Shown in pieces: positions 6,018-47,289 of a stretch of 64,000 nucleotides of DNA (its first letter is position 1; every line of letters begins with the position of its first letter). Position numbers and translations under genes: made by a program. The stretch is taken from positions 1 to 64,000 of IMG/VR virus record IMGVR_UViG_3300032046_000005, one strand, 5' to 3'. The stretch comes from a virus. Under the pieces are notes generated by a model. It was not told the DNA's origin. It did not search any database and was given only the letters and a program-made list of their open reading frames with translations.

Positions 6018-6419
6018 ATGATAAATATGAATAATAAAAAATCATACAAACAAAAATTAGCAAAAGAATGCTTAAATAACAAATGGTATTCAATTGACCT
6101 TAGACTTGATAAATTAACTGAAGATGAAAAAAGAAATGATTTAAAATATCATCTTCATATAATTGGAATATTTAATTGCTGTGCTTTTTGTGATGATGTG
6201 GAATTTAGAAGCCATTTTAACGATAGTATGAAGTGTTTTGATATGTGTGATTTTTGTATAGTAAAAAGAAAATGTATTAGAATGATTAAAAAGATTAATA
6301 AAAATGCAAGTATTAAAAAAGGGAATGTTGAAAAAGTAAAGAAATGTGTAAAGAAAACAATTAAAACATTAGAAAAAATGGCAGGAATAAAAAATGATAA
6401 AAAAAGCAATGGAACTTGA
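6018..6419 (+). CDS. Cys-rich CxFC-family protein (paralog of 7996-8370 and the C-terminus of 22538-24013)
   Basis: KW...CAFC...CDFC pattern shared among three ORFs. Confidence 0.65.
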   Translation: MINMNNKKSYKQKLAKECLNNKWYSIDLRLDKLTEDEKRNDLKYHLHIIGIFNCCAFCDDVEFRSHFNDSMKCFDMCDFCIVKRKCIRMIKKINKNASIKKGNVEKVKKCVKKTIKTLEKMAGIKNDKKSNGT

Positions 6420-6569: not shown

Positions 6570-6992
6570 ATGGATAGACGAGGACATCTAATAGCTTCAG
6601 AATTTATTTTGGTCATGTGCTTATGTGTATATTTGATAATTTCATTAAGGGAATATGGAACTTACGGTGTTTTCATATCAACAATCTGGTCAATTGGAAC
6701 ATATTTATTTGGTTGCATATTACCAGATTTTGATCATCCAAATGTTCAAGAAAAAATGATTGTGATAAAGTGGTTAAAGAACATTACAAAACATAGAGGT
6801 CATTGGCACAGTTTAGTTGCCATGAGCGTGTATGGAGCTTTGATACTTTATGTGATGTGGTTGTTTCAAATCGTGTTTTGGCAATTTCCGGTAATTTCAG
6901 GAATGCTTGGTTTCTTTAGTCATTTGGTGGAAGATGATTTGAACAGATACAAGTTAAAGAGCAAGCCGGAAAGGGGAGTTAAGGTATGGTGA
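6570..6992 (+). CDS. Membrane-bound metal-dependent hydrolase (YdjM/DUF2227-like)
   Basis: RGH, LPDFDH, HRGHWHS and SHLVED motifs between hydrophobic segments. Confidence 0.8.
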   Translation: MDRRGHLIASEFILVMCLCVYLIISLREYGTYGVFISTIWSIGTYLFGCILPDFDHPNVQEKMIVIKWLKNITKHRGHWHSLVAMSVYGALILYVMWLFQIVFWQFPVISGMLGFFSHLVEDDLNRYKLKSKPERGVKVW

Positions 6993-6998
6993 TTTTAA

Positions 6999-7184
6999 AC
7001 GATTGAATACAGTATCGATCAAATAAGTAAAAAAGAATTGTTTAAAGAAAACAGAGAATTGAAAAAAGAAATACAAGAATTACAAAACGAAAATTATAAC
7101 ATCAAAAAACAAATGAAAGAATTACAAAACAGATATGATATTGAAATAGCTAGTAAACCAATTGTAAAAACGAGAGTAATGTAA
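6999..7184 (+). CDS. Small coiled-coil protein with putative ACG start (absent from the ORF track)
   Basis: GGTGA RBS at 6988-6992, 6-nt spacer, ACG ATT GAA TAC; 61 sense codons; the in-frame codon before ACG is TAA. Confidence 0.55.
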   Translation, partial: TIEYSIDQISKKELFKENRELKKEIQELQNENYNIKKQMKELQNRYDIEIASKPIVKTRVM

Positions 7185-7490
7185 TGAGATGTAAAGAATG
7201 TGTTCATTTAACTGAAGACAAGACAATATACAAGAGACCTTGGTGTTTGCTTGATGGTAATGATGTGTTTGATAAGAATCAGATATGTTCAATTGATGTA
7301 AAAAATTACGAAATGAGGAATAAAAATGGTTAAAGTAGTTGTTGAAATTTACACTGATCTTATAGGAAAACTTGAAAAAATAGGACAAAGTGGCAAAGCA
7401 AGTTCAGGATATAGACAAGATTTTCAATTTTGCTTGATAAAAGCAATTGAAGAATTTATAAAGAAATATGAAAATGAAGTGAAATGAAAA

Positions 7491-7988
7491 ATGAACATGA
7501 AAGGTATAAAAACAAAAACAATAAAATTTGAAAACATAAAGTTAGAAAATAAAGAAGCAAGTGTATTGTTTCATGCAATGGAATTGAATTATGAAGAAGG
7601 TTTAAGAATACACTTAAACAATCAACATGGTAATGTGAAATCGTTAATAGGTAGAAAAGTGTTTGATGGATGGATATTCGATGAAATCATGTTTGAGATT
7701 GAAGACAAAGAAGTTGATGATAAAACAAAATTGAAAGAACTTGAAGATAAATTCATAAAATGTGAAAATAAAATCATTTATATGAATAATAAATTTAATG
7801 ATGACATAATTACTTTAGCAAAAAATCAAATTGGTATGAATCAACAAGGTTTATGTGTAAAAGTTGATGATTTGAATAGAAAGTTAATATCACAATTTGA
7901 TGCAATAAAAAATATTAATGCAAATATTGAAAAAATTTTTAATAACATATCAAGTATTGAAGATGATATAGAAGATTTGGAGGATTGA
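7491..7988 (+). CDS. Hypothetical protein with C-terminal coiled coil
   Basis: ORF in operon context; heptad-rich C-terminus. Confidence 0.6.
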   Translation: MNMKGIKTKTIKFENIKLENKEASVLFHAMELNYEEGLRIHLNNQHGNVKSLIGRKVFDGWIFDEIMFEIEDKEVDDKTKLKELEDKFIKCENKIIYMNNKFNDDIITLAKNQIGMNQQGLCVKVDDLNRKLISQFDAIKNINANIEKIFNNISSIEDDIEDLED

Positions 7989-7995
7989 TAGTAAA

Positions 7996-8370
7996 ACGAT
8001 AAATGATAAAGAAACAAAAGAACTGAAGTTGAAACTATACAAGGAAACGCTTGAAAAGAAATGGATTCCTTTTAGCAAAGGATTGCAAGAAGGCAAATGT
8101 GTTTTTTGCGAAAATGCTATGGAAAGAGGTAGAAAGATGTGTGGGAACAACGATTTTTTTTCTTGTAATTATTGTTTGTGTAATCTAGAATTATGTAATG
8201 AATTTAATGACAATGCTTTATATCAAAAAATTGACTCAATGTTAAATAGAATATATGCAGATTTACAATATTTAATATATATGGAAATGTGGAGAAAGTA
8301 TTCTTGGTTAATGATCGAAGGATTGAAAAGAGAAATCAAAAAAACCGAAGATGAATTAATAAATGAATAA
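7996..8370 (+). CDS. Cys-rich CxFC-family protein, putative ACG start
   Basis: In-frame ACG at 7996 extends the TTG 8029 call; gives MINDKETKELKLKLYKETLEKKW, colinear with the N-terminus of 6018. Confidence 0.6.
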   Translation, partial: TINDKETKELKLKLYKETLEKKWIPFSKGLQEGKCVFCENAMERGRKMCGNNDFFSCNYCLCNLELCNEFNDNALYQKIDSMLNRIYADLQYLIYMEMWRKYSWLMIEGLKREIKKTEDELINE

Positions 8371-11018: not shown

Positions 11019-11397
11019 TGACTAAAGAAACCGAAGAGAACGAAATTCCTTGGTGCTTAGATTTCATACGAACAACAGGAAAATGCATGTGGTTAGGTGG
11101 ATTTTGTAGAGATTATAATGAAAGTAATAAAAATGAATGTATAGTAAAAAAGGAATTGAAAAAATAATGAAGGAAAACGACAAACGATATTGGTCAAGAG
11201 TAGTTTCGATGGTTATAAACAAAATATTGTTTGATTTGATGAATGGAGATATTAATATTAACAATTTTAATATATCTACAGGAAATTTTTATAATGATGT
11301 TGTATATTTAGAAGAATTAATTGATTATTTAAGAAATTTAAAAAAGAAAATAAGAAAAAAAGCAAAAAAAAAAATTAAACAGTATGGAGGTAATGAA

Positions 11398-11607
11398 ATG
11401 AAACAAGTATGTGAATTGATCGAAACAGGAATATACCAAACTTTCAATGTCAATAAAAAAACAACCGTTAAAGATTTGATGAAAGAGTTGAATCTTGAAG
11501 CATGCGAAACATTGAGCATTTTAGTAAACGGAAAGAAAGTTGATTCTGGTTTCGAAATCGACACGAAAGATGAAGTTGTTATCATTCCAGCAATTAAGGG
11601 AGGATGA
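11398..11607 (+). CDS. Ubiquitin-like beta-grasp protein (SAMP/MoaD/ThiS type)
   Basis: 69 aa; TVKDLMKEL, ILVNGK, DEVVIIPAIKGG with free C-terminal GG; GGAGGT RBS before ATG 11398; in frame with the upstream ORF from 11137. Confidence 0.85.
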   Translation: MKQVCELIETGIYQTFNVNKKTTVKDLMKELNLEACETLSILVNGKKVDSGFEIDTKDEVVIIPAIKGG

Positions 11608-12686: not shown

Positions 12687-13502
12687 ATGGCATTTAAAAT
12701 AAAATTAAACAACGGAAAAATGATGAAAGGAATCATTGAAACTCTTTCAGCAATAATAGACGAAACAACGATTAAAGTTACACCTGAATTTTTTAAAATT
12801 GAAGCGATGGATCCAAGCCGAATTTGTTTGTTGCAACTCACGATCAAAAAAGAAAACTTTGATGAGTATAAATGCGATAAGGAATCGCTTGTTCCGTTAA
12901 ATTTGAGTGATTTTGATAAGATCTTGAAAAGGTTGAGTGCAAATGAATCTTTAGAACTTGAAGGCGATGAAAAAGATAATAAAATCAAGATAAAAATGCA
13001 GAAAGAAGGAACAAAACGACCAAGATCCTTTAGTTTGGCATTATTAGATATTGATCAAGAAAATGTTCCGTTTGAAAATCTATTCAAGATAGAATATCCT
13101 ACAAGAATAGAAATGAAAACACTTGTTTTAAACGAAGCAATCAAAGATGCGGAAATTTATTCAGAAATTCTAACTCTAAACGCAAAACCTGATGTTTTAC
13201 GATTATCTGCATCTGGGCAAATTGGAGAAATGGAATATCAGATCGATAAAGACGATTTAATTAACTATAAAACTGAAAAAGAAGAAAGTGGTCAATATTC
13301 TCTTACATTTCTAAAGGGAATCATGAGATTGAGTTCAATAACGGAAAACTTTAATATTTCCATGAAAACTGATCATCCGATCAAACTCGTATTCACGTTA
13401 GAAAATGGAGCAGAATTGAATTATTTTCTAGCTCCACGAGTAGAAGAAGCTGAAACATCAGATGAAGAATCAAGTGCATTTGCTGATGATTTCAAAGAAT
13501 AA
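12687..13502 (+). CDS. pcn: Proliferating cell nuclear antigen (archaeal sliding clamp)
   Basis: AMDPSRICLL, YSLTFL, DHPIKL, YFLAPRVE motifs and an acidic tail. Confidence 0.97.
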   Translation: MAFKIKLNNGKMMKGIIETLSAIIDETTIKVTPEFFKIEAMDPSRICLLQLTIKKENFDEYKCDKESLVPLNLSDFDKILKRLSANESLELEGDEKDNKIKIKMQKEGTKRPRSFSLALLDIDQENVPFENLFKIEYPTRIEMKTLVLNEAIKDAEIYSEILTLNAKPDVLRLSASGQIGEMEYQIDKDDLINYKTEKEESGQYSLTFLKGIMRLSSITENFNISMKTDHPIKLVFTLENGAELNYFLAPRVEEAETSDEESSAFADDFKE

Positions 13503-13603: not shown

Positions 13604-14887
13604 TTGATGAATGAATCAATTCAAATATCAATGGAATATTTTACTAATCCATATGGATATATTTACGAAATTAGAAATAAAATTAACGGTAAAAGATATA
13701 TTGGGCAAACTACAAGGAAAAACGGATTTAGATGTCATTGGAAACTAAATACATTGTTGAAGAATTATGAAGGGAGCATTCATTTATATAATAGTATAAA
13801 AAAATATGGAATAGAAAATTTTGAAAGAAAAATTATTGATAGAGCATTAAGTAAAGAAGAATTGAATGAAAAAGAAGAATATCACATTCAAAAATATAAT
13901 ACGCTTAATTTTAATTATGGATATAATTTAAGACATGGAGGAACTTCTGGTAAAATAACTGATGAGATAAAAAAGAAAATGAGTGAAGGAGTAAAAAGAT
14001 TTTTTTTAAATGAAGAGAATAGGAAAAAACAAAGAGATCGAGTTCGAAGAGGAGAAAATCATCCATTTTTTGGAAAACATCATTCGGAAGAAACTAAAAA
14101 AAAAATAAGCAATAAATTAAAAGGAACACATATTTCAGAAGAAATTAAACAAAAAATAAGTAAAAATTCAAAAGGGAAATCTAAATCTGAAGAAACAAAG
14201 AAAAGAATGAGTAATGCGCAAAAAGGAAAACCACATTTTTGGAGCAAAGGAAAACGTTTTTCAGAAGAACATAAACAAAAAATATCACAAGCTAAAAAAG
14301 GAAAATGTCGTTCGAATGAAACAAAAGAAAAAATTAGTATGATATTGAAAAAATATTATGAAGAATATAACAAAAAGTATAATTTTACAAGAGAATATTT
14401 ATATGAACAATACAACGTTTTAGAAAAATCTATGGATCAAATTGCAAAAGAAAATAATTGTACTCATAAATTGATTAAAAAAAATCTTATAAAATATGGA
14501 ATAGAAATTAGAAATAAACCATCAAAAAAAACTAAAGAAAAAATCAGTAATTCGTTAAAAGGAAAAAGACGAGGTAAAGAAAATATGTTATATGGTAAAC
14601 ATCTTTCTGATGAACACAGAAAAAAGATTAGTGATTCATTAAAAGGAAAAAAACAAGGTAAAGAAAATCCAAACAATAAATTCTTTTTTATAAAAGAATA
14701 TTTAAATGAACAATATTGGAATTTAAAAAAAACAACAATAGAAATAGGAAAAGAGAATAATTGTAGTGGTAGTGTAATTCAATATTGGATGAAAAAATAT
14801 AATATTTATAAAAGATCAAAATCAGAAACTAAAAAACTATTAGATGAAAAAAGAAAAAGTGATTTAAATAATGGAAAAAACTCTTAG
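13604..14887 (+). CDS. Free-standing GIY-YIG homing endonuclease with NUMOD3 repeats and two HTH repeats
   Basis: YIYEI...RYIGQT, GYN; repeated HSEETKKKIS-like units; YLxEQY...xIxKENNC twice. Confidence 0.9.
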   Translation: MMNESIQISMEYFTNPYGYIYEIRNKINGKRYIGQTTRKNGFRCHWKLNTLLKNYEGSIHLYNSIKKYGIENFERKIIDRALSKEELNEKEEYHIQKYNTLNFNYGYNLRHGGTSGKITDEIKKKMSEGVKRFFLNEENRKKQRDRVRRGENHPFFGKHHSEETKKKISNKLKGTHISEEIKQKISKNSKGKSKSEETKKRMSNAQKGKPHFWSKGKRFSEEHKQKISQAKKGKCRSNETKEKISMILKKYYEEYNKKYNFTREYLYEQYNVLEKSMDQIAKENNCTHKLIKKNLIKYGIEIRNKPSKKTKEKISNSLKGKRRGKENMLYGKHLSDEHRKKISDSLKGKKQGKENPNNKFFFIKEYLNEQYWNLKKTTIEIGKENNCSGSVIQYWMKKYNIYKRSKSETKKLLDEKRKSDLNNGKNS

Positions 14888-22537: not shown

Positions 22538-24013
22538 ATGAGCGTTTGCAAGGAATGTCAAGCCAAATTTCAAGAAATCGTTCAGATTTGCGAGAAGTGT
22601 GGTTCAGATGACATTGAAGTTGTTAGGAAAACGAAGAAAGAGATCGTTCGTTTTGCAGGCGGAGAACATTCGTTCTATGATCAAAATGATGTTGATTCTG
22701 ATTCTGAAGATGAGAATCATTTTCCATATTATACTCCAGTTGATGATTTTTATTCAAATCCAAACGCAAGAAAATCACTTGAACAACTAAAAAAAGAAAC
22801 ACCATTCGTTGCAATAACTTCTCCAAAACAAAACGTAGAATTTTTCACACCAAACAAAACAACTAACGATGGACGCCACGAATTACCAAAACTTGGATAT
22901 GGTGATTTCATTGACGAAGAGTATGGCAAACAGTTAATGAATATTGGCAAACAATGGAGAGAAACAAAAGAACGAATTAAGAAAGAAGAGGAAGAAAAAG
23001 CATATGCTAGAAAAAATCCATTTTTCAAAATACCTGAAAAAGAGAAAAAAATAGGAAGATTAAGAGAATCATTGCTTTCATTAGGAATATCAACAACATT
23101 GAAACATGGACAATGGGAAAGAGTTTACGATAAAAAATGTAATGGAAATGGCATTTTTATAGGAGCTGGTGTTACGATCTATGGAGAAAACGAACAAGAT
23201 ATTGATTTATGTGGAGAAGGAGAATCATTGTTTGGTTTTGTAATGGGATGTTGTCCACAATTAGAACAGATTCCTTCTGAAGGATATTTTTACAACGATT
23301 TTGATAATCCGTTTTATGACAATCAATATGTTCAAGTAGGAAGTCCGACAATAGGAAATGTCTGCTTGGTTGTTTCACGAATTGGAGTTTCATTCAGAGT
23401 TGGAGATAAGTTAAAGTGTGTAGATGGCATGTTTGAAGTTGTTCAACCAGACGATGAGTATCAAATGGTTGCCATGGAAAGCGTGAATGGATACCCAAAT
23501 ACTTGCAAGTATTTCTATGCTAAGTATATTGGAAATGGACATGTTCCGATGTTAAAAAACAATATATTTCCTACTCAACTAACTTTTGAAGAAAGATATC
23601 CAGAATCGAATAAATATACTCCACCTGAACCGTTGAAAAAAATTGATGATTTTTTTAATAAAACGAAAAAGAAAAAAATATTAATAAAAAATATGTATGA
23701 AATTAGCTTATATCGATGGAACCGATTTGTAGAAAGAAAAGTAATTCACATTCCTTGTCCCTTTTGTATCGATTCTGGTTATTATTATCAATCGAATAAA
23801 TATTGTTGTGAATATAAGTGTAGAATTAATCATAAAATTTGTGGAAATAAAAATTCGTTGTATGAAAAATACTCGAAAACAGGTAATAATAGAAAAGCAA
23901 AAAAATATGCAAAAAAAACTATAAAATTGATTAAAAAAGAAATAAAAAAAATCAATAAAAAAGAACTGAAAAACAATAAAGATAAAAAAATTGATCTTAT
24001 AAATTGGATGTGA
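22538..24013 (+). CDS. Mosaic protein: Zn ribbon, capsid decoration-protein paralog domain, CxFC-family domain
   Basis: About 150 aa align with 53862-54353 (GQWERV, DIDLCGE, KLKCVDG, KYFYA). Confidence 0.8.
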   Translation: MSVCKECQAKFQEIVQICEKCGSDDIEVVRKTKKEIVRFAGGEHSFYDQNDVDSDSEDENHFPYYTPVDDFYSNPNARKSLEQLKKETPFVAITSPKQNVEFFTPNKTTNDGRHELPKLGYGDFIDEEYGKQLMNIGKQWRETKERIKKEEEEKAYARKNPFFKIPEKEKKIGRLRESLLSLGISTTLKHGQWERVYDKKCNGNGIFIGAGVTIYGENEQDIDLCGEGESLFGFVMGCCPQLEQIPSEGYFYNDFDNPFYDNQYVQVGSPTIGNVCLVVSRIGVSFRVGDKLKCVDGMFEVVQPDDEYQMVAMESVNGYPNTCKYFYAKYIGNGHVPMLKNNIFPTQLTFEERYPESNKYTPPEPLKKIDDFFNKTKKKKILIKNMYEISLYRWNRFVERKVIHIPCPFCIDSGYYYQSNKYCCEYKCRINHKICGNKNSLYEKYSKTGNNRKAKKYAKKTIKLIKKEIKKINKKELKNNKDKKIDLINWM

Positions 24014-42073: not shown

Positions 42074-42661
42074 TCACGCGTGCCACAAATATACCGCAAA
42101 AAAATACAATGCGCTTGCTCCCTCATTGGCGTCCTTTCCCCAACTCCCCGCCAGCAAGTCTCCAAGCGTTGCGCTGAACGCGCTTGATGTCGTGTATAAA
42201 TATTGATTTCCTACAACATGAATTAAATCGAAATTTATTCCGTTGAAAATGTTTGTATCAGAATAAGTTTCTCCCGAACCAGCTGCGCCTAAATACAATT
42301 TTCCAGAATTAGAAACAATTCCACTATTAACTGTAACTAAAGTAATTTTCCAATCGTTTCTCGTCTCGGGAACGACGAAGTTAAACTGCATGTACGCGTT
42401 CACGTCGGAACTTGCCACGCTCCACGATTCTGCTCCTGCCATCGCGAACCCCTCCATTCCATACATTAAGGTTGGTGATATATAATTATTCATTAATGTT
42501 AATATAGCAACTATTTTGTCGTAAATAGCGTTTTTACTCGGTGCAATTGCAGTAATAGTATCCCAACTTGCCGCGTATGCCGTATCTGATACTAATTGTG
42601 TGAGTAATTGGGACACTTCTTCAAGTTTTCTTTCCAAGTTTTTTATCCTATTTTCTGACAT
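42074..42661 (-). CDS. Putative tail tip / receptor-binding protein
   Basis: Follows the large tail protein; APSKNAIYDKI tail-fibre-like motif and beta-rich C-terminus; GAGG RBS. Confidence 0.55.
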   Translation of the reverse strand: MSENRIKNLERKLEEVSQLLTQLVSDTAYAASWDTITAIAPSKNAIYDKIVAILTLMNNYISPTLMYGMEGFAMAGAESWSVASSDVNAYMQFNFVVPETRNDWKITLVTVNSGIVSNSGKLYLGAAGSGETYSDTNIFNGINFDLIHVVGNQYLYTTSSAFSATLGDLLAGSWGKDANEGASALYFFAVYLWHA

Positions 42662-42670
42662 TGATTAACC

Positions 42671-45600
42671 TCATTTTAACTCGAATATCAATCCGTTTGA
42701 TGCTATTATCATGCATTGTTCCGATTTGGCTTCTATCTTTATTCTATCGATGGTAAAAGTGTCTTCTGTTATGGACACATCTGTCGTGGTAAACTTGAAT
42801 GTGAACACTTGTCCAGGTTGTATGAAACCAAGATCTCCTATTTCTGGTTGACAGTCGATCGTGGTTATGGCAGTCGTTCGAGCAATGATGGCATCTGCTT
42901 TTGCATTACATAATGCTGTAGTATTAAGTGTTGCATCTCTTACAATCAATAGAATGACTCCATTCTTTTGTTGGTCTTCTAAGTTAATACCATGTTCTGT
43001 TTCTGATTCAATTCCTATTGATCCTCGAACAATAACTTGATTTACTTCAGAACTTAAGAAATAACCATTAGCATCTTCAATAGGATCAAAGTAAGTAGTA
43101 CCATCATATTGTATCGCTACTAATGTATCCAATTCACCATTGTTATAATACAATTCTCCAGTAGGAGTCAAATACCAAGTAAATGTATCAATATCTTTGA
43201 AATTATCAATTAAAGTTCTCCAAGTCTTGTCTCCTGCTAATGTAAGTGTTCCCATTGCTGTTCCTGCTGTTAAAGTTCCCATCGAAATGTAAGCAATACC
43301 GTTCAAATCGTTGTTCATGTCAGTAATGATCTCGTCAGTCCTTCCTGCTTTCGAACCAGAAGGTTTGACTTGATCCATCTCTTTTGCTGGACTTTCTAAC
43401 CTTACCACTCTTAATGTTCTCGCATCATAAGCTTTTACCAAGCCTTCGAAACACACTTGATCAGGCGTTCCTTTTGCCACATGAAGGTTGTCACCTTCCA
43501 CATAATCGTTATCCCAGATCTCTGCAGGAGCGGAAAGGTATGTAGAATTTGCTACATTTTCTTGACAATCTATTCTTACTTTACTTATATTTGCAACTAC
43601 AGTTCTAAATTCTCCTCCTGTAACTCGTATTGTTTCATTGATATATAAATCAAAAGTATCTGTGGTACAATTGAACGCTACTTTAAAATGATCTAAATTT
43701 CCATCAGTTGGAACTACTCCTACAATTTCTATGGCTGCATTAACAAGATTATAATAATAATATTTATCATTGTCTATTTGTAATAATATTGCCATTGTTC
43801 CAACAGAATCGTAAAAAATGATATTTGTCATATCTGAAGCATCTTCATTTCCCCAATAGAATTCATAGGTTTCTACAGTTTGAACTACTGCAAAATTATG
43901 TACAACATAAGGATCACTTGCTCCTCCATCGTGTGTAACTTTCAATACATTTTTCATGTTATCATATTCATCTACAAGTTCACAACTACAAGTATTAGGC
44001 AAATTAATATCATCAATCCAATCTATGTCTCCAGCAATTGTTATAACTTTAGGCGTTTCGTCGTTAAAGGAGTCTGGAGAGTGCTTATAATACATGGCGT
44101 TTCCGTTTGCTGTATAATATCCAATGAGTTGCATTAACATGTTCTTCGCCACATTAATGTAGTTGCTCCTAAGCAACACCTCAGCAACAGGATAATCCTC
44201 TTTTGGATGGTCAACCCACCACTCCACGATGTAAGGCATCATGTCTTGATACTTGTAAAGCGTTCCAGCGTCTGTTATTAAATAAGTATCCGATATGGCA
44301 ATAATCACATCGTCAAAATCTTGCACGGAAATTAACCATAAATTACCTCTCGATTTTGAGATTTGATATACTTTGTCTTCGGTTAAAGAAAAACCTTTTT
44401 CTGTATTAAATCCTATATCATTTGAGGTATCACAATTACGATCTAGCATTAAAATAATATCATACTCTCCTTTCTTAGTGAATGTGTCACCTCCAATTGA
44501 ATAGGTGCAATAATAATAATCGGGATCATAAAAGAGCGTAAAAGATATAACATCTGAATTGTCGTATGTGATCGTTCTCTTATCGATTGTTGCCGGTAAT
44601 TCAGTTCCTGCACCGCAATCGCAAACTTCTATGATAGTTCCACCAGTATTGTTATAGCACCAGATTTCAACGTTCTCGTCTGACCATGCCCATAAAAAAT
44701 ATGTTTCAGTTGCGGATTTTACCATCATTTGGCTTGCATCGTAAGTTCTCCCAGCTGGAGAGCCCATGTCGTTCGAATGTTTGGCAGAAGTAGTGAGATT
44801 TTCTACATTCAAGAAATATTGTTCGTTCCCGTAAAATCTCACGGTATTGTAAACGCATCCAACTTTGATCTTGGGATAATAATGACATATTACATACATT
44901 TCTTCAAATGTTATAGTTCCTCCCCCAGTAACAGTGGGAGATGTATATTTTATCTGCAAACCATCAAGTTGTGCTTGAGTTATTGAAAGACCAGTCCAAT
45001 GTTGATGTGTCCAACCGGTTGAACTACCAAATTCAAACGTTTTCGTTCCTAACCAAGCTCCTGCATATACATTGACTTGGGCATCGTTATTAGAACATTT
45101 GTTTTTGCCATTAATCCATACTTCAATTTCACTAACATTGGTATTGGTTGGAAGCGTGATTGTATTCATATCAAGTATTTCTACTTCATTTGCAGTAGCC
45201 GTATATATAAATTTATTTGTTGGAAAATCGCCAGTTTCTGCAAGACACGACCAATGTGTGGTTGTATCAGGTGATTCGTCCCAAGTAATTGAAGAATCAC
45301 CATTAGGATGGAAATGTGAAGGAGTAACTTCAGTTCCTTTATTGAATTCTAAATTAACCTGAAAAGTGTCTAAATCTGAATCTATTAACGATAAACCCGA
45401 CCAAGTTACAGTATGCCATGCAGCAGTAGCGGTGGGAGTTATCGTTTTTGATGCAGTTGTTCCAGTTGCAGACCCTGTGACATGAATAGTGCCACCTGTA
45501 GAAGTGTCTGCTTTACAATATATATTTGTAGTTATTTCGTAGATTTCTCCAGAATCGTAAGCAGATAAATCGATTTCAGTAAAGTTAAAATTATCGTCTG

Positions 45601-46141
45601 CACCATCAGTTTGGGTATAAATCTCTTCGGTAAAAGAAGGTGCGGCAGGTGCGTCGTCAACTTCAGTATAATGATTAGCTCCAGTAGATGTCCATTCTGT
45701 CGTTACATCGGGAGCTTCTGGAGTCATTGTTGTTTCTTCTAATGTATATCCCCCCGCCTCAAAGTAATTAACGAACATCGTAGTTCCTATTTTAAAAATG
45801 TCGAACACATCACAATCAGCAAAAGATTTCACTTCTGTTATTGAATCGTCGCTTATTAAGAGAGACCAACAAAAACTCGTCCCGCCGTCGTAGTTACAAT
45901 CTATAAAATAGATTTTATCGTTTGTCCGGTCAAACCAACATCTTGCTATATTCTTAGTTCGTGTGATTATTAACGATTCAGTATCGGTCGAGACTATAAA
46001 TTTATATAATTTCGTTTGATCTATAGAATCCACATAGTATAAAGTATCAGAATCAACTTCTATGAATAAATGAGTATTTTCTGGAAGATGGGATAATGTT
46101 AGACCAGTTGATTGATAATTATAATACTTGTAACTTGTCGT
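42671..46141 (-). CDS. Large tail/baseplate hub protein with inserted beta-sandwich domains; putative ACG start at 46141 (track start GTG 46033)
   Basis: T/D/G-rich; duplicated W...W(S/T)GLS...LD.xQ domain; C-terminal hub-like NQVIVRG...IQPGQ; frame open upstream of 46033 with no ATG. Confidence 0.72.
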   Translation of the reverse strand, partial: TTSYKYYNYQSTGLTLSHLPENTHLFIEVDSDTLYYVDSIDQTKLYKFIVSTDTESLIITRTKNIARCWFDRTNDKIYFIDCNYDGGTSFCWSLLISDDSITEVKSFADCDVFDIFKIGTTMFVNYFEAGGYTLEETTMTPEAPDVTTEWTSTGANHYTEVDDAPAAPSFTEEIYTQTDGADDNFNFTEIDLSAYDSGEIYEITTNIYCKADTSTGGTIHVTGSATGTTASKTITPTATAAWHTVTWSGLSLIDSDLDTFQVNLEFNKGTEVTPSHFHPNGDSSITWDESPDTTTHWSCLAETGDFPTNKFIYTATANEVEILDMNTITLPTNTNVSEIEVWINGKNKCSNNDAQVNVYAGAWLGTKTFEFGSSTGWTHQHWTGLSITQAQLDGLQIKYTSPTVTGGGTITFEEMYVICHYYPKIKVGCVYNTVRFYGNEQYFLNVENLTTSAKHSNDMGSPAGRTYDASQMMVKSATETYFLWAWSDENVEIWCYNNTGGTIIEVCDCGAGTELPATIDKRTITYDNSDVISFTLFYDPDYYYCTYSIGGDTFTKKGEYDIILMLDRNCDTSNDIGFNTEKGFSLTEDKVYQISKSRGNLWLISVQDFDDVIIAISDTYLITDAGTLYKYQDMMPYIVEWWVDHPKEDYPVAEVLLRSNYINVAKNMLMQLIGYYTANGNAMYYKHSPDSFNDETPKVITIAGDIDWIDDINLPNTCSCELVDEYDNMKNVLKVTHDGGASDPYVVHNFAVVQTVETYEFYWGNEDASDMTNIIFYDSVGTMAILLQIDNDKYYYYNLVNAAIEIVGVVPTDGNLDHFKVAFNCTTDTFDLYINETIRVTGGEFRTVVANISKVRIDCQENVANSTYLSAPAEIWDNDYVEGDNLHVAKGTPDQVCFEGLVKAYDARTLRVVRLESPAKEMDQVKPSGSKAGRTDEIITDMNNDLNGIAYISMGTLTAGTAMGTLTLAGDKTWRTLIDNFKDIDTFTWYLTPTGELYYNNGELDTLVAIQYDGTTYFDPIEDANGYFLSSEVNQVIVRGSIGIESETEHGINLEDQQKNGVILLIVRDATLNTTALCNAKADAIIARTTAITTIDCQPEIGDLGFIQPGQVFTFKFTTTDVSITEDTFTIDRIKIEAKSEQCMIIASNGLIFELK

Positions 46142-46634
46142 TAAATCGCCTCGATATTATCTTATACAATCCAACCGTAAAAATGCTCATCATGACTATA
46201 AATAAGAAAATTATTATAGAATAAAACAATTGATAATTTGGATGTAAAAACGATAACATAAACTGTGTACCATCTCCTTTTTCGCTTCCAAACATTAAAT
46301 AGAATAAATTATAAATAATCGAAATAAAGGTTCCTATAAAAAAATCGTAGTTTTTTATAACATAAGAAAGTACCATCATGAATAATCCAATAAAACTAAC
46401 AAATAATACACCACTTATATCTATAAATCGCATATCGTTAGGTGAAATAGAACCAACTTTTTCCCAATAAGTATAAAATGCAGTTAGAGTAAATTCGAAA
46501 TGAAGAAATATATTTTTTGTCATAATAATTGCAATTATGTGTCCTATTTCGTGAATAAAACAATATACAAAAAATAATATAATACAAATAAAATTGATTC
46601 TTACTATTCTTAATATTTTCCTAATTTTGTTCAT
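46119..46634 (-). CDS. M50-like membrane zinc metalloprotease
   Basis: IHEIGH within a hydrophobic helix, distal GDG, several TM segments. Confidence 0.72.
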   Translation of the reverse strand: MNKIRKILRIVRINFICIILFFVYCFIHEIGHIIAIIMTKNIFLHFEFTLTAFYTYWEKVGSISPNDMRFIDISGVLFVSFIGLFMMVLSYVIKNYDFFIGTFISIIYNLFYLMFGSEKGDGTQFMLSFLHPNYQLFYSIIIFLFIVMMSIFTVGLYKIISRRFNDKLQVL

Positions 46635-46806
46635 TTTTTTCTTTTTCCTCCGCGCTTTTCAGTCCCAATTCCTGCTCTATTTCTGCTTTTATAGCGTTCC
46701 TTGCGATCTCGCTCAAGTTTACCTCTGGATTTAACCTTCTTAATACTTTTATGTCTTCGTAATCCAATGTCAACGCTATTTTTTTATAATTGCGACCACT
46801 TTTCAT
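46621..46806 (-). CDS. RHH/antitoxin-like regulator
   Basis: IALTLD...VNLSEIARNAI; own TATA-like box (AAACATAAATA, 46840-46830) about 24 nt upstream. Confidence 0.65.
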   Translation of the reverse strand: MKSGRNYKKIALTLDYEDIKVLRRLNPEVNLSEIARNAIKAEIEQELGLKSAEEKEKNEQN

Positions 46807-46854
46807 TATACTATTAATATATTGGTAGGTATTTATGTTTATCGTTTTAAGAAG

Positions 46855-47289
46855 TCACCCGCATTGTTCTAATAGCACGCCATCAATTTTCCAATATTGC
46901 GTTTCTCCTTCTACTTTTCCTCCTCTTTTCAACCCATTCTTAGCGATTGCCATCGTGAGCGAACTTGCGTCTGCTCCAGCATTGTAAAAATGCACCACGT
47001 TAGTTCCTCCTGTATCTCGATATATCGAAACAGTAAAACCTCCTGCGTCGTGCCAATCGATTAAATAGTGTTGAAAGTCGTACCAATCTTGGTGCGATTC
47101 AAGAAATATGCCTTCTGCAAGCACGTTCCAAAACCGTTTTTCTAAATCATAGAACATGTGTCCTCCTCCCCCATAATGTTTAAACGTCGGATCTATGTTA
47201 AGCCAATAGTAGATGTCTTTTACTTTTATTTTCAAGTAATCAGTTCCATCGGTAATCCATAAATATCCTCCAGAAATGTAATCGGTCAT
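46855..47289 (-). CDS. Distal tail-like protein
   Basis: Position directly after the tape measure gene; size. Confidence 0.5.
   Translation of the reverse strand: MTDYISGGYLWITDGTDYLKIKVKDIYYWLNIDPTFKHYGGGGHMFYDLEKRFWNVLAEGIFLESHQDWYDFQHYLIDWHDAGGFTVSIYRDTGGTNVVHFYNAGADASSLTMAIAKNGLKRGGKVEGETQYWKIDGVLLEQCG

Follow-up and report, generated by a model that had tools for sequence, protein, structure and literature searches.

Between positions 6018 and 8370 on the plus strand, the viral DNA described here carries two zinc-finger genes and, lying between them, a small ORF for a coiled-coil protein. The first zinc-finger gene (6018–6419) opens with an ordinary ATG. The coiled-coil ORF (6999–7184, 61 codons, with its TAA at 7182–7184) and the second zinc-finger gene (7996–8370, 124 codons) are given here as read from an ACG codon, and the same applies to the largest tail gene of the virus, which is located on the minus strand (42671–46141, 1156 codons). 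The public gene calls place these three starts downstream, at TTG 7038 (48 aa), TTG 8029 (113 aa) and GTG 46033 (1120 aa), respectively, so that, if the ACG codons are the true starts, the three predicted proteins have lost 13, 11 and 36 residues.

The window, that is, the whole stretch of DNA that was analysed, is the first 64 kb of the 115.6-kb virus record IMGVR_UViG_3300032046_000005, a single record of 115,632 bp with a GC content of 28.8% and no N, which CheckV estimates to be about 71% complete. The two ends of the record overlap by 188 bp with one T/C mismatch within the overlap, so the assembly contains population variation. The only tRNAs of the virus are Leu-UAA and Ser-GGA, each with an intron of 60–65 nt in the anticodon loop, and an Rfam search of the window at the gathering threshold returned nothing.

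At the second zinc-finger gene, a GGAGG ribosome-binding site (7979–7983) lies 12 nt before ACG 7996, which is followed by INDKETKELKLKLYKETLEKKW. An earlier reading of this DNA, made from the letters and the ORF translations (hereafter, the sequence-only reading), had aligned this peptide without gaps to the ATG-started paralogue at 6018, and the likeness held. The 22-mer after the ACG is identical in 11 of 22 residues to residues 2–23 of the 6018 protein, and its best match among all 65,164 six-frame ORF windows of the genome is precisely the one beginning at residue 2 of that protein; at the DNA level, ACG ATA AAT at 7996 corresponds to ATG ATA AAT at 6018. It should be added that the kinship of the zinc-finger proteins is visible only by this N-terminal window test and by profile comparison, the comparison of the whole proteins being not significant (BLASTP E 0.087; nothing with phmmer). 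A word-index protein search with the 7996 protein gave no homologues. An exhaustive HMMER search of 1.84 billion representatives returned two, P0004 (109 aa, E 7e-11) and P0005 (134 aa, E 5e-5). When these were aligned, Met-1 of P0004, of P0005 and of the 6018 paralogue all fell in the column of ACG 7996, the Ile-2 of the homologues fell on the ATA that follows it, and the residues I.., ..L..LYK.TLE.KWIP after that column were shared by the four proteins. No ATG, GTG or TTG is present upstream of the conserved N-terminus of the 7996 gene, and the assignment of its putative start to ACG 7996 is strongly supported by the alignment.

A third zinc-finger paralogue is fused into the ORF at 22538–24013, and the sequence-only reading had seen a possible further start in an in-frame ACG (23663–23665, plus strand) placed where the fused domain begins. 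The ACG is there and the domain border is real, in that hhalign identifies the C-terminus of the 22538 ORF as a member of the zinc-finger family (probability 93%, E 2.8e-7). The codon, however, lies about four residues inside the expected start of the domain, and an ACG would occur by chance within so small a window in about 7% of cases, which is not rare; internal initiation at 23663 is not supported.

The largest tail gene had been described as open for 36 codons upstream of its called GTG, up to an ACG that follows GAGG at the spacing also seen at 42661, and this description proved exact. The frame is open from 46156 on the minus strand, GAGG occupies 46152–46149 and is separated by 7 nt from ACG 46141, the same arrangement as GAGG-7 nt-ATG at 42661, and the full ribosome-binding site, GAGGCGAT (46145–46152), has one mismatch to GAGGTGAT. 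The only database homologue of the tail protein is P0002, which is 43% identical to the ACG-started protein over the first 260 residues and whose residue 2 aligns with residue 5 of that protein; a third member of the family was found on the JGI contig L001, where its ATG overlaps the upstream stop codon as TAATG. When the three proteins are aligned, the Met of L001 comes two columns, and Met-1 of P0002 three columns, after ACG 46141, and the N-terminal stretch K.YNY...LP.NTHL...LYYVDS..D.TKLYK is common to P0002, L001 and the tail extension. Within the 36 codons that a start at the GTG leaves out, the invariant positions are K, Y, Y, L, P, N, H, L, L and V. The frame before the first conserved residue reads TAT CGA GGC GAT TTA ACG ACA AGT TAC AAG, with no ATG, GTG or TTG; between the in-frame stop at 46159 and that residue, the sole codons one base from ATG are ACG and AAG, the latter in a very poor start context and the former preceded by GAGGCGAT. 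A conserved extension with no canonical start in front of it strongly supports the view that translation of the largest tail gene would begin at ACG 46141. The comparison with homologues that the sequence-only reading had proposed thus turned out in favour of the ACG codons at both genes, the extension being conserved in P0002 and L001 (with an ATG in L001) and Met-1 of the homologues of the 7996 protein lying in the ACG column. No match was obtained when a phage collection was searched at the DNA level with both regions, nor did IMG/VR yield any relative when scanned with P0004, the tail alignment or the proteins of the tail and 7996 genes.

An additional site, beyond those of the sequence-only reading and outside the window, was found at ACG 91041 on the minus strand, at the head of a trimmed paralogue of the major capsid protein. 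The 31 codons before the TTG at 90954 align with the N-arm of that capsid protein, in such a register that residue 8 of the paralogue corresponds to residue 10 of the major capsid protein, and the gene has no ATG, GTG or TTG upstream of the conserved N-terminus. GATGAT lies 5 nt before the ACG (GATGAT-TAAAA-ACG), and the context of this codon falls at the 91st percentile of true starts. The alignment and the context together give good support to ACG 91041 as the predicted start of the capsid paralogue.

Two further sites are less compelling. For the 61-codon coiled-coil ORF, everything that had been reported (GGTGA upstream, the ACG right after an in-frame TAA, the length) was found at its place: the letters are GGTGA(T), TTTAA, then ACG ATT GAA, and the Shine-Dalgarno-like GGTGAT (6988–6993, plus strand) occupies exactly the consensus position −11 to −6, 5 nt before ACG 6999, and is the best placed of its kind among the ACG sites. 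No homologues of the encoded protein were found in a word-index protein search. The context score of the ACG is 6.0 vs 4.1 for TTG 7038; this ORF probably starts at ACG 6999, the start context being the sole basis and TTG 7038 and ATT 7002 the alternatives. The other site heads a small ribbon-helix-helix-like gene (46621–46845, minus strand), where ACG 46845 is found 9 nt after GGGTGA. An equally natural N-terminus is offered by ATG 46806, with the ribbon-helix-helix-like domain beginning 8 residues after it, and a start at ACG 46845, while possible, is not needed given this ATG. Other ACG codons, at 73375, 88300, 22529, 74272, 91728 and 1199, lie near normal ATG starts and were taken as chance occurrences. 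As for the suggestion that a stop codon is missing from two in-frame fusions, where CAG or CAA precedes an internal ATG, these codons are indeed present near 11380 and 11919, but there is no sign that a stop is expected there; ATG 11398 is served by a GGAGGT of its own and stands at the head of a ThiS-type ubiquitin-like domain.

The ACG sites also emerge from a scan of all ORFs of the genome that was performed without regard to ACG and that listed 27 genes in which 9 or more open codons precede the first ATG, GTG or TTG of the frame. The list includes ACG 6999, 7996 and 46141, and in addition 46845 and 91041. Start contexts were scored with a profile for which 88 confident ATG starts were used and in which GGTGAT, at −11 to −6, gives way to an A-rich spacer. 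The ribosome-binding sites before the five ACG codons 6999, 7996, 46141, 46845 and 91041 are GGTGAT, GGAGG, GAGGCGAT, GGGTGA and GATGAT, 4–12 nt upstream, with context scores of 6.0, 5.0, 0.3, 2.7 and 12.8, and in all five cases the ACG outscores the canonical start downstream. Only 21% of the internal in-frame ACG codons (n = 207) reach a score of 0 or more. In the extensions that precede the called starts, 12 of 822 codons are in-frame ACG, vs 5.3 expected, and 11 of these codons have a start-like context, vs 2.5 expected (binomial p 5e-5); the share of ACG among the codons of genes is 0.64%. ACG is the sole codon enriched in the extensions that is not merely part of the purine- and A-rich signal. 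Gaps of 60–120 nt that bear promoters are common in the genome, and the length of a gap is not decisive by itself. A scan for orphan ribosome-binding sites was swamped by motifs within genes. Altogether, ACG starts would concern 3–5 of the approximately 180 genes of the virus.

The sequence-only reading had emphasized that its ACG codons all occur as AACGA. This context does recur, but as a special motif it did not stand, as 251 of the 798 plus-strand ACG triplets of the genome (31%) are AACGA (226 further AACGA are on the other strand), and ACG 91041 is in the context AACGG. AACGA is an ordinary product of the A-rich spacer and of the common A at +4, and AA-ATG-A is likewise found at 33 of 139 ATG starts (24%). 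The associated idea of a motif-specific T-to-C shift, linked to a modification of the DNA, must be abandoned: AATGA is not depleted (366 and 308 occurrences on the two strands, with 126 and 115 of AATGAT), and it serves in normal starts, many of them AAATGA, e.g. AAATGAT at 6393.

Some indication of the host comes from the PCNA encoded by the virus (12687–13502). The PCNA proteins of 18 matching archaeal genomes, most of them labelled Promethearchaeota and one Hodarchaeota, with contigs of up to 1.28 Mb, are 49–61% identical to the viral protein (56–61% in 17 of the 18 and 49% in the last). In 400 kb of one of these genomes (31.5% GC), the profile upstream of confident ATG starts is the same as that of the virus, the common elements being T at −6, a GGTGAT-like block at −11 to −6 and the A-rich spacer. 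Because of the PCNA likeness and of the shared translation signals, the host is most likely a Loki-type Asgard archaeon, an assignment drawn from one acquired gene and from the signals just described.

A few genes of the same lineage show a similar arrangement. In the thrC of one genome, GAGGAGGT is followed after 7 nt by ACG, and the conserved FHSTN motif has no canonical start ahead of it; this ACG was found in 1 of about 25 thrC genes, and in one species only of the family-level sample, in which the other 21 readable thrC genes have an ATG near the FHSTN motif. A histidine phosphatase gene in the 400-kb sample likewise has a ribosome-binding site and an ACG, with no canonical start before the catalytic RHG motif, although this gene, present in 4 of 61 host-lineage genomes, is too sparsely conserved to serve as a test gene. 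There was no excess of ACG in the 400-kb sample, and the candidate signature of ACG starts in thrC and in the histidine phosphatase gene appears to be rare in the host lineage.

As ACG is found where relatives have their first Met, translation most likely starts at ACG in at least three of the viral genes, the largest tail gene among them, and the public calls for these are too short. We consider it fairly probable that the virus uses ACG as a start codon of the weak, near-cognate kind. Among the possibilities put forward by the sequence-only reading, which were genuine ACG initiation, RNA editing and the T-to-C shift, the first is the best supported, since a homologous Met lies in the same column (7996) or two to three columns away (46141) and no canonical start is available. 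On the evidence from sequence, the most likely assignment is one in which ACG initiation has good support at 46141, 7996 and 91041, is probable at 6999, possible at 46845 and not demonstrable at 23663. We infer from this that ribosomes would initiate at the ACG codons with Met as residue 1 and that expression from ACG would be lower. The small ribosomal subunit of the host would be placed by pairing of the 3' end of its 16S rRNA with a Shine-Dalgarno site of the GGTGAT/GGAGG type; the A-rich spacer would then bring the ACG into the P site, where the initiator Met-tRNA would pair with the codon at its first and third positions, and the protein would begin with Met. The ACG-led genes are all inside operons, with four of the ACG codons 2–9 nt after the upstream stop codon and ACG 46141 overlapping the upstream gene by 23 nt; as they lie near or overlap an upstream ORF, translational coupling to that ORF may help the weak start. 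Start selection altered by the virus itself, through an initiator tRNA, aIF1 or aIF1A of its own, was considered and set aside, as neither an initiator tRNA nor a SUI1 (aIF1) or eIF-1a (aIF1A) domain was found in the virus record, itself about 71% complete. With these and a deaminase lacking from the record, the simplest account is that the host initiates in the ordinary way and accepts ACG when a good ribosome-binding site stands before it. Whether Loki-type ribosomes take ACG as a routine fourth start codon, whereby the virus would keep some of its proteins low, is a broader proposal to which we assign about equal chances of being right or wrong.

The exact start codon is ambiguous at 6999, 7996 and 46845, where the codon after the ACG is ATT or ATA, themselves near-cognates. 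It could be argued that initiation occurs at these neighbouring codons (ATT 7002, ATA 7999, ATA 46842, and ATA 91029 at the capsid paralogue) and that the ACG is merely the last triplet of the spacer. ATT and ATA are both accepted starts in NCBI table 11, they follow three of the five ACG codons, vs an Ile second codon in 15 of 139 ATG genes, and one thrC in the order-level sample of the host lineage has GGTGAT and then ATT ATT, with no other start. Against this, neither codon is available before the conserved residues of the tail gene, where the choice is between ACG and AAG; at 7996, the Met of the homologues is in the column of the ACG and their Ile-2 in that of the ATA; and ATT 7002, ATA 7999 and ATA 46842 have context scores below those of the ACG codons. 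We regard initiation at ATT or ATA as unlikely.

Alternatively, the downstream starts (TTG 7038, TTG 8029, GTG 46033 and TTG 90954) may be the ones in use, the ACG being a recent loss of start or a chance occurrence in a population consensus and the proteins being truncated. These starts are the choice of the public gene calls, same-strand gaps of 40–90 nt are not rare in the genome of the virus, and at 6999 the ACG has nothing but its context in its favour. Yet the skipped stretches are conserved at the protein level in homologues or paralogues, and the contexts of 8029, 46033 and 90954, ranked against true starts, fall between the 2nd and the 5th percentile (the 5th for both TTG 8029 and the TTG of the capsid paralogue). 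Moreover, three independent losses of ATG to ACG, one of them in an essential tail gene, would hardly be expected unless ACG works. Use of the downstream codons is, in our opinion, decidedly unlikely.

An artefact of the sequence would explain the data in one of two ways: the true codon is ATG and an SNP or consensus error hides it, or an ATG located upstream is masked by a homopolymer run that is wrong by one base. The population variation revealed by the T/C mismatch in the terminal overlap makes the former conceivable, and at two sites there is indeed an out-of-frame ATG just upstream: ATG 6986 would enter the frame of 6999 if AAA were AA, and ATG 91051 that of 91041 if the run of five A were one of four. 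However, errors would have to strike the middle base of several start codons, always to C; no upstream ATG exists at 7996 or 46141; the context of ATG 91051 is poor (score −2.0); and ACG is also found at the place of the start in independent assemblies from the host lineage. An artefact thus appears very unlikely.

Editing of the mRNA from C to U in the A-rich AACG context of the start codons, as in plant organelles but in an Asgard archaeon or its virus, would fit a genomic ACG aligned with an ATG in the homologues, which is the classic signature of editing, and the A-rich AACG context is common to the sites. A search of the virus record with PF00383 detected no cytidine deaminase domain, and, as shown above, AACGA accounts for too large a share of the ACG triplets to be a specific signal, with AACGG at 91041. 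We know of no mRNA editing in archaea or in their viruses, nor did we find a report of it in the literature, and the probability of this explanation seems to us extremely small. Just as little credence can be given to recoding, whether the tail gene were entered from the gene before it by a +1 frameshift or the 46845 ORF by read-through of a TGA: a +1 shift is what the frame of the upstream gene would require at 46141 and 7996, and at 46845 the upstream gene shares the frame of the ORF, but the frame relations vary across the sites (f0, f2, f2, f0, f1), the upstream frame at 7996 ends in three consecutive stops (TGA TAG TAA), and a +1 fusion of the upstream membrane-protein gene with the tail gene was rejected because the homologous tail proteins start independently and the membrane-protein gene is unrelated to the gene upstream in L001.

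If initiation at ACG is real, standard gene finders truncate or miss genes in the Loki-type Asgard lineage, and the virus would have a simple means of keeping the expression of a tail protein, a capsid paralogue and small regulators low. Our literature search turned up no publication describing ACG starts in archaea or in viruses of archaea.

Several known systems are comparable in part. In plant organelles, start codons are created by C-to-U editing of ACG to AUG. The viral sites resemble these in having a genomic ACG aligned with the ATG of homologues, and differ from them in that no editing enzyme was found in the virus record and no specific motif is present. Bacteria and archaea also start from GUG and UUG and, rarely, from AUU and AUA (NCBI table 11; the AUU of infC is an example), whereas an ACG start is barely functional in E. 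coli. Like these starts, the ACG codons described here are led by a Shine-Dalgarno sequence, are one base from AUG, and have relatives with ATG at the same place; unlike them, the mismatch is at the second position, and ACG is absent from the start lists of gene finders. Near-cognate initiation at ACG is established in eukaryotes and in their viruses, as for VP2 of AAV and C' of Sendai virus. As in those cases, ACG stands where a start is needed, is presumably read by the initiator Met-tRNA with a middle-base mismatch, has a favourable context (A-rich upstream, with A or G at +4) and suits proteins made in low amount. The difference is that the ribosome would be placed by a Shine-Dalgarno sequence in the polycistronic operons of an archaeal virus, with no scanning from a cap; ACG initiation behind a Shine-Dalgarno sequence would, if true, connect these two ways of choosing a start codon concretely and in a form open to testing.

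The small CxxC...CxxC zinc-finger family has three copies, all on the plus strand (6018-6419, 7996-8370 and 23651-24013), the last of which occurs as a C-terminal fusion in a 491-aa protein; just two outside homologs were found among 1.84 billion representative proteins.

Another composite ORF lies at 11137-11607 (plus strand), where the final 69 codons, starting from ATG 11398, correspond to a ubiquitin-like protein of the ThiS/MoaD/SAMP type (Pfam ThiS, E 4.4e-9) with GG at its C-terminal end. The motif GGAGGT precedes ATG 11398, and the 87-codon N-terminal part is in the same frame, with no stop codon between the two. Judging from its sequence, the product could be a ubiquitin-like modifier that an Asgard virus encodes for itself. 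On the minus strand, the 144-aa gene upstream of the small ribbon-helix-helix-like ORF (46621-46845) shares the frame of that ORF, with one TGA (46855-46857) as the only stop between them; readthrough of this codon would fuse the two.

The first 188 bp of the whole 115,632-bp record are repeated at its end (115445-115632), except that base 59 shows a T/C mismatch, so the assembly contains population variation. Circular permutation or terminal redundancy of the record is the probable explanation of the overlap. Outside the window, ARAGORN located adjacent genes for tRNA Leu-UAA and tRNA Ser-GGA (genome positions 79184-79491), each containing one 60-65-nt intron beside the anticodon, and detected no intron-less tRNA in the whole genome.

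As regards the host lineage, one Loki-order thrC (L060), which has no canonical start ahead of the conserved motif, shows an in-frame TGA followed by AGGTGAT CT ATT ATT, and is a candidate for an ATT start. In the virus itself, a GIY-YIG/NUMOD3 homing-endonuclease-like gene (13604-14887, plus strand) is located between the genes for PCNA (12687-13502, plus strand) and a DnaG-type primase. On sequence comparison, the viral PCNA is the best host marker found: it shares 49-61% identity with its cellular counterparts in 18 archaeal genomes (56-61% in 17 of them), the majority of which are labelled Promethearchaeota and one Hodarchaeota.
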